64,000 nucleotides of DNA from contig JBDSEE010000120.1 in NCBI GenBank assembly GCA_039920245.1, forward strand, positions 27,036-91,035. The letters run 5' to 3'. Source of the DNA: Ferruginibacter sp. GTDB lineage: Bacteria > Bacteroidota > Bacteroidia > Chitinophagales > Chitinophagaceae. Under the pieces are notes generated by a model, which worked only from the letters and a program-made list of their open reading frames with translations, ran no database searches and was not told the origin of the DNA. This document shows positions 2,828-11,479 of the stretch, in pieces. Position numbers and translations under genes: made by a program. Within the stretch, counting starts at the first letter, position 1. Each line of letters begins with the position of its first letter.

Positions 2828-3604
2828 ATGAGACCATTATGGACAGGTGCAATAGGTTTTGGACTGGTTAATATACCCGTCAAACTTTATAGCGCTACAG
2901 AATCAAGCAATCTTGACCTGGATATGCTGGACAAAAAAGATCACAGCAATATAAAATTTAAAAGGGTAAATGAAAAGACAGGCCAGGAAGTAAAATTTGA
3001 AAATATTGTAAAGGGATACATGATCGGCAGCAAGTATGTAGTGCTGGATGACAAGGATTTTGAAAAAGCAAATGCCGTAAAAACAAAGCTGATAGAAATA
3101 AGTGATTTTGTAAATGAATCAGAGATTGACAGTATGTACTATGAAACACCTTATTACCTGGCTCCCGACAAATCCGGAATGAGGCCGTATGCATTATTGA
3201 GGGAAGCATTGATAAAAACAAAAAAAGCCGGCGTGGCAAGTTTTGTAATGAGAAACAGAGAGAACCTGGCGATATTAAGAGCGTCGGGCGATGCAATAGT
3301 TCTTAACAGGATAAGATTTGAGGAAGAGATACGGGAAACAAAAGATCTGGAACTTCCCAAAAAGACGGAAGTGAAACCTGCAGAATTAAAAATGGCTGTA
3401 AGCCTTATTGATCAACTGACAGCGAAATTTGATATTTCAAAATATAAAGATACCTATACCGAAGCGCTGTTGAAACTGATACAGGCAAAATCGAAAGGTA
3501 AAAAAATTGCAACGCCTACTTTAAAGGTTGTGCACAGCAAAACGCAGGATCTTATGGAACAATTAAAAGCAAGTCTTACAACAAAGCGTAAAAAAGCATC
3601 CTGA
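2828..3604 (+). CDS. ku: Non-homologous end-joining protein Ku
   Basis: [31 protein letters not shown] and [10 protein letters not shown] motifs with a basic tail. Confidence 0.97.
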
Positions 3605-3606
3605 TC

Positions 3607-4224
3607 ATGAGCCTGGCAAAGTATAAAGAAAAAAGAAATTTTAAAGTTACCCCGGAGCCATCTTCGGTTAAGAAAGTTGCGACAAAAAAACTTTCTTTTG
3701 TTGTGCAAAGGCACAAAGCTTCGCACCTGCATTATGATTTCAGGTTAGAGATGGATGGGGTTCTTAAAAGTTGGGCGGTACCAAAAGGTCCCTCTTTAAA
3801 TCCTGCTGATAAGCGGCTCGCCATGATGGTAGAGGATCATCCATACGATTATAAAGATTTTACAGGCATTATTCCTGAAGGCAATTACGGCGCAGGCATC
3901 GTGGAGATTTGGGACAAAGGAAGTTATACGGCATTAACAGACGATGCTAAAGCAGATGATGAAAAATTATTGAAAGCCGGTCTGAAAGCAGGCAGCCTGA
4001 AATTTGTATTGAAAGGTAAAAAGCTAAAAGGCGAGTTTGCCCTTGTAAAACTAAAGAACAATAAGGCAGGAGATAATTCCTGGTTACTGATAAAACATAA
4101 CGATGCATTCGCCGTGCAGGATGAATATAATAGTGAAGAAGAAACTCCCGCCAGTTCTCCCATAAATAAATGGCTTGCTGAAAATAAGAAACCTGCAAAA
4201 AAAAAAGCTTCTTCACAGCAGTAA
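3607..4224 (+). CDS. ligD: LigD 3'-phosphoesterase (PE) domain protein, possibly the N-terminal part of a frameshifted LigD
   Basis: FVVQRHKASHLHYDFRLE, LKSWAVPKGPS, EDHPYDY and GNYGAG. Confidence 0.93.
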   Translation: MSLAKYKEKRNFKVTPEPSSVKKVATKKLSFVVQRHKASHLHYDFRLEMDGVLKSWAVPKGPSLNPADKRLAMMVEDHPYDYKDFTGIIPEGNYGAGIVEIWDKGSYTALTDDAKADDEKLLKAGLKAGSLKFVLKGKKLKGEFALVKLKNNKAGDNSWLLIKHNDAFAVQDEYNSEEETPASSPINKWLAENKKPAKKKASSQQ

Positions 4225-4259
4225 AATCTAGTCGGAAACTTACATCATATATTAAACCA

Positions 4260-6095
4260 ATGCTTGCCAAAGAAACGGACAAGCCATTTGATAATGAAGA
4301 ATGGATATATGAAATAAAATGGGATGGTTATCGAGCCATAAGTGAAATAAATAATAATGCCGTAAAACTCTATTCACGCAATGGCAATGATTTTTCTGGC
4401 AAGTTCCCTCTTATAATAAATGATTTAAAAAAAATAAAACATGATGCTGTTTTAGATGGAGAAATCGTTGTGCTAAATGAAGAAGGTTTTCCTGATTTTC
4501 AGAAAATACAGGATTATGAATCAAACACCCATTTTCCCCTGATCTATAATGTATTTGATCTATTGTCGCTGGACGGAAATGATTTGTACCATATCCCATT
4601 AATTGAACGTAAGGCCCTCTTAGAAAAATTACTGAAGAAAAATGAAGTAATCAAATACTCAGATCATGTAACGGGAAACGGTAAAATCTTTTTTGATGCG
4701 GCTGCGGAAAAAAACCTGGAAGGAATAATGGCTAAAAAAGCTGACAGTGAATATCATCCGGGTGCAAGGTCAAATGATTGGTTAAAAATAAAAAACCATA
4801 AAACTGCAGATGTAATTATAGCAGGTTATACTGAGCCAGGCGGATCGAGGGAATATTTTGGGTCGCTTGTATTGGGCATGATGAAAAAGGGTAAATTGGT
4901 TTATGCCGGCAATGCAGGAACTGGCTATAATGAAAAGACACTTGCAGACCTTCATGGGTTGATGCAGAAAAGAATTATCAAGCAGTCTCCATTCACCGAA
5001 AAAATTCCAGGCAGTCAATACATCAGCTGGGTAAAACCGGAGTTGGTTTGCGAAGTTAAATTCACTGATTGGACAAAAGATGAAAAATTAAGGCACCCTG
5101 TTTTTTTGCAATTAAGAAATGATAAACCCATAAAAGAAACTGACATGGAAAAGCAAAAGCCCGTTAAGCTAAAGAAAGAGCCATCATCTGAATTAATCAT
5201 TACGCAAGGGAAAATAAAAGTACCTGTTTCCAATCCGGGCAAATTATATTGGCCTGAAGAAGGGATTACAAAAAAAATGCTGGTGGAATATTACCAGGAG
5301 ATTGCTTCATATATTTTACCATTTTTGAAAAACAGGCCGCAGTCATTAAAGCGAAATCCGAACGGAATAATTGACAATGGATTCTTTCATAAAGATGCAG
5401 GAGAAAAAGCACCTGAATTTGTAAAATCATTTCCTGTGCAATCAGGATCAGCTGATAAAATAATTGACTATATCATTTGTAATGATAAAGCAACTCTTGC
5501 ATATTTAAATAATCTTGGTTGTATAGAACTTAATCCATGGCATAGCACGATTAAATATCCTGGCAAACCAGATTACATGATTATTGATATTGATCCTTCT
5601 GATGAAAATACTTTTGACCAGGTAATTGAGTCTGCTTTAGTATTTAAAAAATATTTAGACAAGGCTGGTGTGAAATCATTTTGTAAAACTTCGGGCGCAA
5701 CCGGCTTACATATTTATGTTCCGATGGCACACAAATATGAATATGAAGAAGTAAAGAATTTTGCACAGATTTTATGCATGATCGTAAGTGAAGAACTTTC
5801 TTCTTTCACCACAGTTGTTAGAAATTTAAAGAAGCGTGGTAATGATAAAATCTATTTAGATTTTCTACAAAACAGGAGCGGGCAAACCATATCTTCAGTT
5901 TATAGCGTGAGGCCAAAACCGGGTGCAACTGTTTCAATGCCGTTGGCCTGGAAAGATATAAAAGAAGGACTTTCCCCTCAGCAATTTACCATACATAATG
6001 CAGCAAAAATTATCAAAAAAAGACCTGATATTTTTAAGGGTATCCTGGGTCCTGGAGTTAGCATCAATAACTGCCTGAAAAAGCTAAATGCCTGA
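4260..6095 (+). CDS. ligD: DNA ligase D, ligase plus primase-polymerase domains
   Basis: EIKWDGYR adenylation motif, EGIMAK, WLKIK, then a POL domain (SNPGKLYWP, IDIDP, KTSGATGLHIY). The frame is open upstream to 4188. Confidence 0.96.
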   Translation: MLAKETDKPFDNEEWIYEIKWDGYRAISEINNNAVKLYSRNGNDFSGKFPLIINDLKKIKHDAVLDGEIVVLNEEGFPDFQKIQDYESNTHFPLIYNVFDLLSLDGNDLYHIPLIERKALLEKLLKKNEVIKYSDHVTGNGKIFFDAAAEKNLEGIMAKKADSEYHPGARSNDWLKIKNHKTADVIIAGYTEPGGSREYFGSLVLGMMKKGKLVYAGNAGTGYNEKTLADLHGLMQKRIIKQSPFTEKIPGSQYISWVKPELVCEVKFTDWTKDEKLRHPVFLQLRNDKPIKETDMEKQKPVKLKKEPSSELIITQGKIKVPVSNPGKLYWPEEGITKKMLVEYYQEIASYILPFLKNRPQSLKRNPNGIIDNGFFHKDAGEKAPEFVKSFPVQSGSADKIIDYIICNDKATLAYLNNLGCIELNPWHSTIKYPGKPDYMIIDIDPSDENTFDQVIESALVFKKYLDKAGVKSFCKTSGATGLHIYVPMAHKYEYEEVKNFAQILCMIVSEELSSFTTVVRNLKKRGNDKIYLDFLQNRSGQTISSVYSVRPKPGATVSMPLAWKDIKEGLSPQQFTIHNAAKIIKKRPDIFKGILGPGVSINNCLKKLNA

Positions 6096-6191: not shown

Positions 6192-6250
6192 TTATTATTA
6201 CACAACCTGTTGAATATTAATCATTGAGCAATTCACAGGGATTCATTTTC

Positions 6251-9200
6251 ATGGCAAATACGAAGCTTATTTTACGCAAGACCGGAAGGGTGTTTTTATA
6301 CATCCTGTTATGCGTTTTCATGCTTGTACTCCTTGCATATATTTTTATAAATCTCCCTGTTGGTAAAAGAGTAGTTAGAAATAAGGTTCAAAGTTTTTTG
6401 CAGGAAAAACTGCATACAAAGGTGGCGATTGGCAGTGTTGATTACAGCCTTCCTCAATGGCTAAAGATAAAAGGAGTTTATATTGAAGATCAGCAAAAAG
6501 ATACCCTTGCTTATGGTGAAGAAATTTCTGCCGATCTTGATATGATCAAACTTATGTTTGGTTACACAGACATTGAGAAGTTATATTTTAAAAATATTTT
6601 GTTGAAAGTTAATCGGGGTGAAAATGATACTTCTTTCAATTATAGATTTGTGTTGGATGCATTCACGGGAAATAAGTCGACTACATCAATTCCTGATACA
6701 GCTGCTCTAAAACTTACATTAAATCACTTGGTCTTTGATAATGTTGCCTTGCATTTTTCTGACGAAAAAGTAGGAACAAATTTCAAAGCAAGTATAAAAG
6801 TGCTTAATGCAACGCTCACAAGATTTCAACCCGATCGTGTTCAATTTGGCCTGAGTGATTTTTATGCAAAGGGTATAAATTTCAAAATGAATTCATACAA
6901 GGAAATTATTCCAGACACAACTGTAATTGCTCCTCCAGATTCGATGACCTTACCGGCTTATGCCTTGTTTATTACGGCAAAGAAATTTAACCTGCAGGAT
7001 GTAAATGTTTCTGTAAGCAATTCTGTAAATGGAATGGATTATGGAAACAACATCAACCACCTTGGATTTAGTAATGTCATTTTTAGTTTGGGTCAGTCCA
7101 TTGCTATTGCAGATAGTGCAGTACTTGATAGTTCAATAATAAAGCTGGCGCTGCCCGTCACTGCAAAAAATAATAAAACAGATACGGTTGTTAGTCAGCC
7201 ATGGCTTATTAAACTTGGCCAATTAAATATGCGACAGAATGAAATTGCGTTTGATGATATTAATGAACCCAAGAAGGGTGGCTTCGATGCATTTCATATC
7301 GATCTGCAAAATGTAAATACGGATATTCAATCTTTTCTCTACAGTTACGATACTTTGAAAGGTACGGTACGTAATTTTTCCTTTAAAGAAAAAAATGGCT
7401 TTAGTGTAGACAGCCTGCATGTAAATTATTTACAAACTCCTACTCAACTTACTGCTACCGAATTATATTTTAAAACTCCCCAGACCCTGTTGCGTGATAA
7501 AATTGAATTAACTTTTGATACGGCATCTGCAACCAAAGCATTAAGAACAAAAAACAGTATTGTAGCAGCCACCATAAGTAATAGTGTAATTGCATTTAAT
7601 GACCTGTACCAGGTGATGCCATCCATAAGATCCAGTTTTCCACCTTCAAAATTTGCAAACCTTAGTCTTCATATCAACACAGAACTAAGAGGAAATCTTG
7701 AACATATTTATTTGCCATACCTGCAACTAAGCGGCCTTACAGGTAGCAGCCTGAGTGCCCACGGAAATCTATACAATGTTTCAGAACCCCGTTTCTTTTC
7801 TTACGATCTTATTATTGAGAAAAGCAGGATAACAAAATCTGACCTGCTCAAGTTTATACCGGCAGGAAATGCAGCTGCCATGCAAAAGATCCCTTCCGTA
7901 TTTTCATTAAGTGGTCATATAACCGGCAACTCGAATAACGTTGTTGCTGATGTAAAAACATCGGCCCAAGGTGCATCATTCAATGGCAGGATTGCTTTAC
8001 ATAATATTTCAAATCCTGCATTACTTACCTACGATTTGGATATCAGGTCGGCAGATATCAATAAGAATTTTATCATGGCATTTTTGCCTCCCGGATCAAT
8101 TCCTTCGCAAATAAACCTCCCGGAAAATATTAAGGCAACCGGTACTATAAAAGCAACGGATAACAGCGTAACGTTGAACACCAGGTTAAATACAAGTTAT
8201 GGCAAGGCAAATGTAAAAGGCTACCTGAATAATTATAAAAACCCTGAGCTGGTAAAATACGATCTTGATATGAATCTCGCAGGCTTTAATGTAGGAAGGC
8301 TGATAAGACAGGATAGTATACTTGGATTAGTGAGCGGTCATGTAAATGCAAAAGGCAGGGGATTCAATTATAAAACTATGGTATCGGATATTAATGGAAA
8401 CCTGGATGCATTGACATACAAAGGCTATACATACCATGATATTTTATTTACTTCCAGCTTTAAAAACGGAATTATTAATAGCGAAGGAAAAGTAAATGAT
8501 GATAATCTTCGCATGAAATATAATTTGCTGGCAAATGTACAAGGTGAATATCCTACAGTAGATGCTAAGGTAAGAATTGATACAGTACAGCTACAGGCAT
8601 TGCATTTTTACTCAGACACTTTGAATGCATCTTTTACTGCAGACATAAAAATGAATGATACGAGGCCAAGAAACCTTGATCTGCATGTAATCATCGACAG
8701 CACATTCCTTCAGTTAGGCACAGAAAAATCATTCTTGGATAGCATGGTGCTTGTGGGTACAAGCAGTGCAGGAATTGATGATATCAGGTTCACAGCTCCG
8801 TTTGCTGAAATTCATGCAAATGGTGCATTTGATTATGATAAGGTAGGCACATCGCTGGCACAATACATTAATAATTATTATAAATTCTCAAATACAAAAC
8901 CCGTTACTATTCCGGATCAGCAGTTAACTTTCGAGGCCAATATTCAACGCCACCCCATTGTATTGTATGTTGTACCTGGTTTGTACGATTATAAGGATAT
9001 AAATATCAAGGGAAGTTATTCATCAGCATTGCAGGATAGTGCATTGAATTTTACAGCTTCGCTGCCTTATGTTTTTTATGGCGATTACATTTTACGATCA
9101 GGAAGAATAAATGTTGCATCCAGGAATGAAAAATTGAATTACGATTTAAAATTGGACACGTTAAGTTTTTCTAAGTACACCTTTTATGGGAATTCGGTTA

Positions 9201-11479
9201 AAGGATATGCAGCGCATGATAGTCTTGCTATAAATGCATTAACACAGGATAATAAAGGAGTAGATTGGTTTGGGGCAAATGCATCAGTTGCAATTAAAGG
9301 AGATGAATACAACTTCAGGCTAAATGATAATTTATTATTGAACTATGAACGATGGAACGTAGCGCCGGATAACTTGATAAGTTATTCTCCACGTGGTTGG
9401 CTGGTAAACAATTTCAGGATGAATAGTGACACTGCAAGTATTACTATCAATAGCCGGCAGCAAGTGCCCAATAGCCCTATAGATGTTAAGATAGATAACT
9501 TCAACCTGAAAAGTTTAAGTGCATTGATAAGTAATGATACTCTATACACAAGCGGCATCATGGATGCCACATTAGTCGTGGATGAATTAGATAAGAGCAT
9601 ACCGGCATTTACAGGAAATGCAGAAATTACAAACTTTGCTATTAACCAACAACCTATTGGAAATATAAAAGCACTATTACAGAAGAAATCTGAAAATACA
9701 ATTACAGGTAGTATAACCCTTACCGGAAATGGGAACGATGTAGAAGCAACGGGTGATTATTTTCTAAATAATCCGGCTGAAGATTTTCGGGCAAATATAA
9801 ATATGCGAAAGATGAACCTTAAGACCCTCCAGAGTTTTACAGCGGGTTTAATACAAGATGCTTCAGGTTCTATCAATGGTAATATTGTATTGAATGGCAA
9901 GTTCTCAGAACCACATTGGCAGGGTCAATTGAATTTTGATACTGCCCGTTTTACTTTATCAGAGTATGGTTCTGTATTGCGATTAAACCAGCAGCACATC
10001 AACCTAAATTACCCCGATATCAGTTTTGATAATTTTATTATCCTGGATTCATTATCTCATGAGGCAAAGCTTAATGGAAAAATTACCGCACTTTCTTTAA
10101 ATGAGTATGACCTGAACCTTGATGTAAATGCTAAAAATTTCATTGTAATAAATACACCAAATGCCATCAACAACGAGATATATGGTTATGCTGCTGTAGA
10201 TGCAGATATGAGGATAACCGGAAATTCAATTTCTCCAAACCTGGATGGAAACGTATTAGTGAATGATGGAAGCAAAATAACGATTGTAATACCAGAACAA
10301 AGTTTTAATAAAGATGCAGCAAAAGCAGTGGTGCGTTTTATTGACAGGGATACCTTTGCGATAGACCCGCCTAAAACTGCATTTCAACCTGTAGCAGACC
10401 AGGCAGTAAATTTTGCACGGTACCTCAATTATAATTTTAATATCGAGGTACATAAGAATTCTACGTTTACAATTATAGTAGATCCTGCTACTGGAGATAA
10501 AGTGGTAGCACAGGGTGATGCACAATTAAATGCAGGCGTTGATCCCGGTGGTAATCTTGTACTGGCAGGAAATTATGAGCTGGATAAGGGAACCTATGAA
10601 TTAAACTACCAGTTCCTGCAACGAAAATTTAAATTGATGAAAGGTAGCAGTATTTCATTTGCTGGCGCACCTATGAATGCAAGAGTAAATATTACTGCTG
10701 AATACACAGCGCTAACTTCTTCCCGTGATCTATTAAGCAATGAAGTAACCGATGTGAGTCCAAGACTTGCCAACTCCTTTAACCAGAAAATTCCCTTCAG
10801 GGTTATTTTATATTTAACTGGCGAGCTTAGCAGGCCGGATATTAATTTTAATATTGAGTTGCCTGAAGAAAGCAACCTGCTCACCGGTGACCTGAGAACT
10901 ACTATAGAAAACAAGCTTGCCCAGTTGAGGAGTGACCAGGCAGCAACAAATAAGCAGGTATTTTCTTTGTTGCTTTTAGGCCGTTTTGTAGGTGAACAAA
11001 GCAGCGACTTTTTTAAAGGAAACGGAAGCGATTTCTCTGACCTTGCCCGGCAAAGTGTAAGCGAGTTTTTGTCAGCTGCATTAAATGAAATTGCCGCCAA
11101 TCTTTTTAAAGGAATAGATGTAGACCTGAATTTAAATACTTATCGTGATTTCAGTAATGGTGGAAATGCACAGCGTACGGATCTAAACGTTACCTTAAGC
11201 AAATCTTTCCTTGATGACAGACTTGTTATTAGTGTGGGTACAAACTTTGGGGTTGAAGGACAGGATCCTGCAAGAAAAGCAGGTACAAATAGTAATAGCT
11301 TTATGCCAGATGTTGCTGTTGCTTATAAACTTACCAAGGATGGCCGATATATGATAAGAGCCTATAGAAAAAATCAGTTTGAAGTCTTGTTAGATGGATA
11401 TGTGGTGGAAACCGGTATTTCATTCATAGTTACTATGGACTATGACAAATTCCATGAACTGTTCAGGAGAAAAAAATAA
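6251..11479 (+). CDS. tamB: Translocation/assembly module TamB (AsmA-like) protein
   Basis: About 1740 aa with an N-terminal TM anchor, repetitive beta-rich body and DUF490-like C-terminus (GNYELDKGTYELNY...YKLTKDGRYMIRAYR). ATG 6251 preferred over TTG 6224. Confidence 0.9.
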   Translation: MANTKLILRKTGRVFLYILLCVFMLVLLAYIFINLPVGKRVVRNKVQSFLQEKLHTKVAIGSVDYSLPQWLKIKGVYIEDQQKDTLAYGEEISADLDMIKLMFGYTDIEKLYFKNILLKVNRGENDTSFNYRFVLDAFTGNKSTTSIPDTAALKLTLNHLVFDNVALHFSDEKVGTNFKASIKVLNATLTRFQPDRVQFGLSDFYAKGINFKMNSYKEIIPDTTVIAPPDSMTLPAYALFITAKKFNLQDVNVSVSNSVNGMDYGNNINHLGFSNVIFSLGQSIAIADSAVLDSSIIKLALPVTAKNNKTDTVVSQPWLIKLGQLNMRQNEIAFDDINEPKKGGFDAFHIDLQNVNTDIQSFLYSYDTLKGTVRNFSFKEKNGFSVDSLHVNYLQTPTQLTATELYFKTPQTLLRDKIELTFDTASATKALRTKNSIVAATISNSVIAFNDLYQVMPSIRSSFPPSKFANLSLHINTELRGNLEHIYLPYLQLSGLTGSSLSAHGNLYNVSEPRFFSYDLIIEKSRITKSDLLKFIPAGNAAAMQKIPSVFSLSGHITGNSNNVVADVKTSAQGASFNGRIALHNISNPALLTYDLDIRSADINKNFIMAFLPPGSIPSQINLPENIKATGTIKATDNSVTLNTRLNTSYGKANVKGYLNNYKNPELVKYDLDMNLAGFNVGRLIRQDSILGLVSGHVNAKGRGFNYKTMVSDINGNLDALTYKGYTYHDILFTSSFKNGIINSEGKVNDDNLRMKYNLLANVQGEYPTVDAKVRIDTVQLQALHFYSDTLNASFTADIKMNDTRPRNLDLHVIIDSTFLQLGTEKSFLDSMVLVGTSSAGIDDIRFTAPFAEIHANGAFDYDKVGTSLAQYINNYYKFSNTKPVTIPDQQLTFEANIQRHPIVLYVVPGLYDYKDINIKGSYSSALQDSALNFTASLPYVFYGDYILRSGRINVASRNEKLNYDLKLDTLSFSKYTFYGNSVKGYAAHDSLAINALTQDNKGVDWFGANASVAIKGDEYNFRLNDNLLLNYERWNVAPDNLISYSPRGWLVNNFRMNSDTASITINSRQQVPNSPIDVKIDNFNLKSLSALISNDTLYTSGIMDATLVVDELDKSIPAFTGNAEITNFAINQQPIGNIKALLQKKSENTITGSITLTGNGNDVEATGDYFLNNPAEDFRANINMRKMNLKTLQSFTAGLIQDASGSINGNIVLNGKFSEPHWQGQLNFDTARFTLSEYGSVLRLNQQHINLNYPDISFDNFIILDSLSHEAKLNGKITALSLNEYDLNLDVNAKNFIVINTPNAINNEIYGYAAVDADMRITGNSISPNLDGNVLVNDGSKITIVIPEQSFNKDAAKAVVRFIDRDTFAIDPPKTAFQPVADQAVNFARYLNYNFNIEVHKNSTFTIIVDPATGDKVVAQGDAQLNAGVDPGGNLVLAGNYELDKGTYELNYQFLQRKFKLMKGSSISFAGAPMNARVNITAEYTALTSSRDLLSNEVTDVSPRLANSFNQKIPFRVILYLTGELSRPDINFNIELPEESNLLTGDLRTTIENKLAQLRSDQAATNKQVFSLLLLGRFVGEQSSDFFKGNGSDFSDLARQSVSEFLSAALNEIAANLFKGIDVDLNLNTYRDFSNGGNAQRTDLNVTLSKSFLDDRLVISVGTNFGVEGQDPARKAGTNSNSFMPDVAVAYKLTKDGRYMIRAYRKNQFEVLLDGYVVETGISFIVTMDYDKFHELFRRKK

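Follow-up and report, generated by a model that had tools for sequence, protein, structure and literature searches.

A conserved poly-A run between two overlapping ligD reading frames of Ferruginibacter as a candidate programmed recoding site

Bacterial non-homologous end joining (NHEJ) is usually described as the work of Ku and of LigD, the latter either a single multidomain protein or a set of separately encoded domains. The stretch of DNA analysed here, called the window (64,000 nucleotides from the draft genome of a Ferruginibacter species, GenBank assembly GCA_039920245.1, contig JBDSEE010000120.1), carries on its + strand a ku-ligD operon in which LigD is divided over two open reading frames (ORFs). 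The gene order is Ku, an ORF for the phosphoesterase (PE) domain, and an ORF for the ligase (LIG) and primase-polymerase (POL) domains, and it is common to all close orthologous loci. Only 2 nt separate the Ku stop from the PE start. The two ligD frames overlap at a run of ten As, which is the subject of this analysis. The relevant features are as follows.

2828..3604, + strand: Ku gene, 258 amino acids (aa), first in the operon (Pfam PF02735 Ku, E = 9e-51)
3607..4224, + strand: ORF1, complete LigD 3'-phosphoesterase (PE) domain, 205 aa (PF13298 LigD_N, E = 7e-43; TIGR02777, 213.9 bits, cut-off 144)
4188..4259, + strand: open -1 frame up to the ligase Met, encoding ...KKKSFFTAVKSSRKLTSYIKP and devoid of ATG, GTG and TTG (from the sequence; the motif K(-8), F/Y(-4), I(-3), P(-1) is kept as in fused LigDs)
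4197..4206, + strand: A10 run, the proposed recoding site (from the sequence; GCA AAA AAA AAA GCT in the PE frame, with an in-phase A_AAA_AAA heptamer)
4222..4224, + strand: TAA stop of the PE frame, 5 codons past the run (from the sequence)
4260..5141, + strand: ATP-dependent ligase (LIG) domain of ORF2 (PF01068 and PF04679, DNA_ligase_A_M and DNA_ligase_A_C; TIGR02779, 317.8 bits, cut-off 227.75)
5220..6095, + strand: primase-polymerase (POL) domain of ORF2, up to the stop (PF21686 LigD_Prim-Pol, E = 3e-80; TIGR02778, 231.9 bits, cut-off 214.7)

The PE ORF closes with the codons GCA AAA AAA AAA GCT TCT TCA CAG CAG TAA, and its product under standard decoding is a free PE protein with the C-terminal end ...KKPAKKKASSQQ*. 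The sequence at 4190-4209 is aacctgcaaaaaaaaaagct. Since 4260 - 3607 = 653 = 3x217+2, the ligase frame is -1 relative to the PE frame; it contains stops up to 4187 and then, beginning with ETCKKKSFFTAVKSSRKLTSYIKPMLAKE..., is free of stops to 6095. Upstream of ATG 4260 no ATG, GTG or TTG is present in the open ligase frame of the window. This ATG is itself the internal Met of a conserved PMLA motif, and the segment 4225-4259, past the PE stop, is translatable only following a change of frame. An earlier reading of this DNA from its letters and ORFs (the sequence-only reading) had already located the A10 at 4197-4206 in the end of the PE ORF, had described the -1 frame as open from 4188 into the ligase ORF with 4260 as its only ATG, and had predicted that one extra A would give an 829-aa PE-LIG-POL protein. 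These points were borne out by the sequence, the second extending to GTG and TTG as well.

ORF2, with LIG and POL, spans 611 aa from ATG 4260 to 6095. Its ligase domain can be aligned to the LigD ligase domain of M. tuberculosis (1VS0), with KPMLA facing APMLAT at chain residue 10, and TIGR02776 is matched with 559 bits (cut-off 373.2). The conceptual fusion obtained with one extra A (829 aa) is colinear with Pseudomonas-type LigD and gives a single match, from residue 2 to 828, to positions 5-866 of the NCBIfam profile PRK05972 (PE-LIG-POL LigD); the score of 801.8 bits is under the whole-protein cut-off of 895, and the DNA is not single-frame. Of the traits of LigD (PRK05972; TIGR02776-02779), the PE, LIG and POL domains and the association with Ku are found at this locus; a single polypeptide with all three domains would require the fusion.

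The 41 relatives searched include five orthologues of the same genus (L002-L006, 53-65% identity), in which the ligase frame is open for just ~635-662 aa. In all five, Ku and a PE ORF precede a LIG-POL ORF that lies at -1, with an A-run in the short overlap. Their junctions read as follows.

L002: GTA AAA AAA AAG CCC
L003: TTA AAA AAA AAG TCT
L004: CAA AAA AAA AAT TCT
L005: AGT AAA AAA AAA GCC, with a ligase-frame TAA immediately 5' of the run
L006: A7 only, with an ATGA stop/start overlap

A family-wide search covered 401 genomes from 151 genera, from which 60 full loci were retrieved and classified by script. The -1 state, i.e. a ligase frame at -1 relative to PE, was found at 25 loci in more than 20 genera, and 23 of these 25 have an A9 or A10 in the PE/LIG overlap (A9, n = 19; A10, n = 4; never fewer than nine). 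In-frame fusions were found at 40 loci. No locus of the family set in the +1 state has such a run at the junction (23 '-1' against 0). Two apparent +1 cases were rejected. L052 is genuinely split, its ATG lying past the stop and its run being interrupted, and L091 (G392:C2) is an in-frame A9 form with an additional frameshift at an A8 (GAC GAA AAA AAA CTG G) in the PE domain (DEKKNWLLIK), ~150 nt 5' of the linker run. Unlike the linker sites, this A8 break looks like an accidental lesion or a sequencing error. Likewise, the linker stop TGR*NGK of L056 (G300:C45) has nothing to do with A-runs and is either a nonsense mutation or an error; the linker is open in the near-identical L081 (G382:C8), at a distance of 0.03. 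Beyond the family, the phylum was sampled with the PE protein as query. The same -1 arrangement was found in three species of family f21 (GAA AAA AAA AGC) and in one species of family f20 (TCA AAA AAA AAG TAA), and run-less split loci of other families have a ligase-frame ATG at most a few dozen bases from the PE stop.

A maximum-likelihood tree was built on the LIG-POL part. The clade of the window (L001-L005 and L051; 57-66% protein identity; support 98 in the Shimodaira-Hasegawa-like approximate likelihood ratio test, SH-aLRT; path lengths of 0.6-0.8 substitutions per site) is -1 with A9/A10 in 6/6 members, and in its alignment the run is the sole invariant block between the end of PE (SPINKWL) and the ligase motif. 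A second clade comprises nine '-1'/A9 loci and two in-frame forms nested among them (L095 and L105) that also carry the run; the A10 of in-frame L095 corresponds to the sister sequence plus one A. Clustering of the -1 labels on the tree was matched in 0 of 500 shuffles.

The sequence-only reading had named a homopolymer assembly error or a recent mutation as the main alternative; on this view the locus would be a pseudogene, inactivated not long ago, or would merely look like one. Homopolymers are indeed error-prone, the genome is a draft of 221 contigs, and L091 shows that evidently accidental frameshifts at A-runs do occur among relatives. An A10 is not in itself rare in the host genome (38.3% GC), which has 214 A/T runs of at least nine. 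Nevertheless, the LigD run is the only one of them to lie where two long ORFs of different frame meet, and 68 of the 214 lie inside intact long ORFs (61 A/T9 and 7 A/T10). With only 1/214 runs at such a junction, the assembly is not riddled with homopolymer frameshifts, and systematic homopolymer error was rejected on this ground. An independent Logan assembly of SRR26386587 has an identical Ku-PE junction and agrees on A10. Moreover, the break is kept in dozens of species with intact downstream ORFs (610-aa). The recurrence of the break in 6/6 members of the window clade, at 23/25 '-1' loci and in two more families rules out, within the reach of sequence comparison, both an assembly error and a recent mutation, and a pseudogene at this locus is hardly credible.

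Clues on how the ligase frame is entered come from the linker. Residues encoded in the ligase frame ahead of the Met show the same conservation at the 25 '-1' loci as in fused proteins, with P(-1) in 25/25, I(-3) in 20/25 and F/Y(-4) and K(-8) each in 19/25; P(-1) is likewise present in 39/39 fused proteins. Mean entropy over codons -9 to -1 is 1.14, 1.02 and 1.72 at the first, second and third codon position, respectively, and the CCN codon of Pro(-1) occurs with every one of the four third bases. At 10 of the 23 run-bearing loci, the window included, no ATG, GTG or TTG is found anywhere upstream in the open ligase frame, and the third-position wobble pattern is also present in these ten. An ATG between the run and the upstream edge of the conserved motif was found at 0/23 run-bearing loci. 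Because conservation is at the protein level and accompanied by wobble even where there is no start codon, these upstream ligase-frame residues appear to be translated; as no start is possible in the ligase frame, the ribosomes that read it must come over from PE. As judged from these comparisons, therefore, the segment upstream of the ligase Met must be translated. The split loci without a run of at least nine are instructive in this regard. All three (L006 with ATGA, L052 with TAG-T-ATG and L064 with TGATG) carry an ATG where the PE frame stops, and only A6-A7 is left of their runs. In-frame fusions and run-less splits, which the sequence-only reading would have counted against itself, do exist, but the ATG at the PE stop of every run-less split strengthens its case.

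The run itself also bears a mark of selection. In long ORFs of the host genome 75% of Lys codons are AAA, yet the all-A spelling AAAAAAAAA accounts for only 6 of 154 KKK triplets (3.9% vs 42% expected). This ~11-fold avoidance mostly takes the form of an interrupting AAG (the AAG-interrupted version of the present tract is written AAGAAGAAA). Since A9-A10 has been kept over deep divergence despite genome-wide avoidance, the run is presumably under selection, and a chance Lys-rich linker was rejected as a sufficient cause in view of the 11-fold avoidance of all-A KKK. The base 3' of the run is G at 21/23 '-1' loci, whatever the phase, and at 6/11 fused loci with a run; the base 5' is usually T.

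It could be argued that no recoding is involved and that PE and LIG-POL are translated separately, LIG-POL from ATG 4260 or from a near-cognate codon, with the run providing a Lys-rich tail and/or an A-rich, Shine-Dalgarno (SD)-independent initiation enhancer of the type found in Bacteroidota. A-rich leaders favour initiation in this phylum, a start at ATG 4260 costs only one Pfam profile position, and true splits with an ATG at the stop exist, as described above. Several other observations weigh against recoding by slippage. A GTG or TTG lies past the run at 9/23 loci; it is found right at the PE stop in several orthologues, as a GTG overlapping or abutting the stop in L005, L054, L063 and L070 (all as GTGA) and in L057, and as a TTG in L055. 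In four members of the window clade (L002, L003, L004 and L051), the open ligase frame contains an ATG 30-49 codons further upstream. At such GTG/TTG or upstream-ATG loci independent initiation is conceivable, though not in the window, and a GTG at the PE stop could provide a back-up route by termination-reinitiation. In addition, an in-frame A9/A10 is present in the linker of 11/40 fused orthologues, in at least eight lineages (L008, L074, L075, L079, L080, L083, L087, L095, L103, L104 and L105), and part of the run's presence could stem from a Lys-rich linker. The -1 state requires at least eight changes on the tree and so must have been gained or lost repeatedly. Finally, as regards the route, sequence alone cannot separate ribosomal frameshifting from slippage. 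Separate translation is nevertheless at odds with the conservation of residues -8 to -1, with synonymous wobble, at 25 '-1' loci of which ten are startless, and with the fact that this Met is internal in LigD ligase domains of known structure. Loci with a genuine ATG start have a run decayed to A6-A7, and the run of the window, 53 nt 5' of the ATG, is too distant for a leader at -1 to -15. Separate translation of the two ORFs accordingly strikes us as improbable.

Two details of these start codons may be added. In the GTG overlaps, AAA AAA AAG TGA, for example, can be read as AAA GTG A. The upstream ATG of L002-L004 and L051 arises from the conserved PE residues NKW (AAA TGG), giving MAGRK.../MVGRK...; the window has this NKW-derived ATG too. 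Ligase-frame stops 5' of the run interrupt that frame in both the window and L005.

Full-length LigD is thus very probably made by recoding at the run, by one route or another, and the operon would carry a programmed recoding site. Standard decoding would yield the free 205-aa PE (~23 kDa), terminated at 4224. For part of the mRNAs, RNA polymerase would have slipped on the A10 (template T10), either adding one A or omitting two. On the resulting A11 (or A8) mRNA the PE frame would continue into LIG-POL to give the 829-aa LigD (...KKPAKKK-SFFTAVKSSRKLTSYIKPMLAKE...). A -1 ribosomal slip on A_AAA_AAA would yield the same protein and may contribute. The ratio of free PE to full-length LigD would then be set by the frequency of slipping. 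As read from the sequence, an A9 mRNA would encode PE with a short alternative tail, AKKKLLHSSKI*. The proposal of the sequence-only reading that slippage makes one locus yield both free PE and full-length LigD gains support from conservation (6/6 in the clade, 23/25 '-1' loci) and from the coding pattern of the linker. The anatomy of the locus, the conservation of this anatomy and the coding pattern in the linker are observed, whereas the occurrence of slippage, the level at which it acts and its efficiency are inferred.

Poly-A runs longer than 7 are a known signal for transcriptional realignment, and reporter efficiencies of 10% for A7, 40% for A9 and 63% for A11 have been determined (Antonov et al. 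2013, PMC3711429). The ligD locus of the window has the features expected of such a site, namely a run of about nine or more at the junction, a break conserved in spite of genome-wide avoidance, and a startless downstream ORF under coding selection. Over the 23 '-1' loci, the run starts at codon position 3, 2 or 1 in 16, 4 and 3 cases, respectively, and none (0/23) has a bare heptamer site. The 60 nt past the run show no hairpin in the window (minimum free energy, MFE, -2.4 kcal/mol; z = +1.1), in agreement with the sequence-only reading, and no fold shared by the 23 '-1' loci (mean z = -0.8). Upstream, no conserved RNA structure was detected (mean z = -0.16); L060, L063 and L070, and not the window, have a hairpin there. 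Terminator-like hairpins in the nascent RNA upstream of a run are known to raise slippage. Because runs are always at least nine As long, vary in phase and lack a conserved RNA structure, transcriptional slippage is favoured, as the sequence-only reading had preferred, and we regard it as probably the main route to full-length LigD.

The same products would arise if the shift were made by the ribosome, through -1 programmed ribosomal frameshifting (PRF) on the in-phase A_AAA_AAA, or A_AAA_AAG in most orthologues. The dnaX heptamer is in phase, as xxA AAA AAA AAG, at 15/23 loci, G follows the run at 21/23, tRNA-Lys(UUU) is the only tRNA-Lys detected in the incomplete genome, and four loci (L055, L062, L068 and L069) do have a stable downstream structure (z < -2). 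However, an in-phase X_XXY_YYZ heptamer, although present in the window, is automatic for any run of at least nine As; all 23 runs are of this length, without reliance on a bare heptamer; and as the phase of the run varies and G follows in the other phases too, this G is not tied to the heptamer. PRF is usually inefficient without stimulators. In the window there is no stimulatory structure 5-9 nt past the site (MFE and z as above), an SD-like element not having been specifically scanned for, and nothing is conserved upstream. The absence of tRNA-Lys(CUU) was dropped as an argument for PRF; with just 28 tRNAs found in the draft it is uninformative. On balance, we consider it rather unlikely that the ribosome makes the shift.

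Transcriptional slippage at ligD would resemble that of dnaX. In Thermus thermophilus, tau and gamma are produced from dnaX by slippage at an A9, and Chlorobi have a two-ORF dnaX with an A10 (Antonov et al. 2013, PMC3711429). As in these systems, an A9/A10 lies in a gene of DNA metabolism, a short and a long product are expected and no RNA structure is needed; as in Chlorobi, there are two ORFs in the genome and the long product requires a slip. The gene family, that of the NHEJ ligase LigD, is different; moreover, the short product predicted for ligD is a complete catalytic domain (PE), as opposed to the truncated clamp-loader subunit of dnaX. The dnaX gene of Escherichia coli and the orfA-orfB pairs of IS3/IS911 share with ligD the -1 relation, the fusion of overlapping ORFs and, in most LigD orthologues, an in-phase A_AAA_AAG (A_AAA_AAA in the window). 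In those genes the site is a heptamer and no longer, with an SD-like element on its 5' side and a hairpin or pseudoknot on its 3' side, whereas in ligD the run always has at least nine As, in variable phase and with no conserved stimulator. Mg-chelatase and other reporter-verified poly-A clusters (PMC3711429) have, like ligD, a conserved poly-A at a -1 junction in a cellular, non-mobile gene. By analogy, the scaling of efficiency with length in Antonov et al. 2013 suggests that slippage at A9-A10 could reach tens of percent. LigD is absent from the recoding clusters in the text and supplements of PMC3711429, a survey that covered only 22 Bacteroidetes genomes, and a full-text literature search found no published report of LigD recoding. 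LigD of the Pseudomonas aeruginosa type (PRK05972) has the same three domains in the same order beside Ku, but as a single polypeptide in one frame, whereas the window locus would give free PE as well as the fused form. The mechanism thus appears to be of a known kind, poly-A recoding as in dnaX of Thermus and Chlorobi, and the gene family and outcome (free PE and full LigD) appear to be new.

A tract of this length could also slip at the DNA level. In a phase-variable contingency locus, slipped-strand mispairing would toggle populations between A10 (off, without LigD) and A11 (in frame). The tract is long enough for replication slippage, selection on the run is equally expected for a contingency tract, and the in-frame A9/A10 forms L095 and L105 nested among '-1' forms indicate that heritable switches occur. 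Variation of tract and state among close relatives, including both off-frames, was however not found: state and length are stable in deep clades (6/6 in one; 9/11 in the other, with A9 in 9/9 of its '-1' members), close pairs are identical (L066/L067 and L060/L070), only the -1 state is found (23 to 0), no A8 or A11 off-states are seen, and two assemblies agree on A10. A DNA-repair enzyme would also be atypical, since it does not belong to the phase-variable surface functions. Phase variation is therefore considered very unlikely.

It is tempting to speculate, although we would not put much weight on it, that the linker poly-A acts as a family-wide 'rheostat', with '-1' genomes slipping to full LigD, fused A9/A10 genomes slipping to free PE, and flips of a single A between the two settings. 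The position of L095 among A9 '-1' forms suggests such flips. In-frame A9/A10 in 11/40 fused orthologues is far above genomic background, and in most of these loci (exceptions are L074, L104 and L105) both shifted frames stop within a few codons. As G follows the run at 21/23 loci, slippage could rise when GTP is scarce, as in stationary phase or the stringent response. If true, this would couple NHEJ capacity to the growth state that needs NHEJ.

Should recoding of ligD be confirmed, many Bacteroidota would set the ratio of a free end-cleaning enzyme to a complete ligase by slippage of polymerase or ribosome, and a conserved recoding site would represent a new regulatory layer of NHEJ repair. 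A rare cellular gene that is neither mobile nor dnaX would join the short list of genes with programmed poly-A recoding. Annotation pipelines would label such loci as frameshifted pseudogenes or as two genes, and comparative censuses of NHEJ would consequently misclassify them. The system should be easily tested, since cultured relatives with complete genomes have the A9 form. Stand-alone PE proteins are found elsewhere (L115, L118, L119, L124 and L125).

A second LigD paralogue is present in the same genome (G000:C19:111955-113910, L018), 45% identical and consisting of LIG-POL only in a 681-aa open frame. It lacks a PE domain, and no PE motif is present in the ORF upstream of it (729-1406 of L018); the paralogue could be served in trans by free PE made at the window locus. 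The runs in intact ORFs of the host genome include an A10 inside a 599-aa ORF at C19:64139, and some of these A/T9-10 runs could be additional slippage sites yielding truncated products. In the window, ligD is followed after ~130 nt by a 1751-aa ORF on the + strand (6224-11479, with a TTG start as listed).

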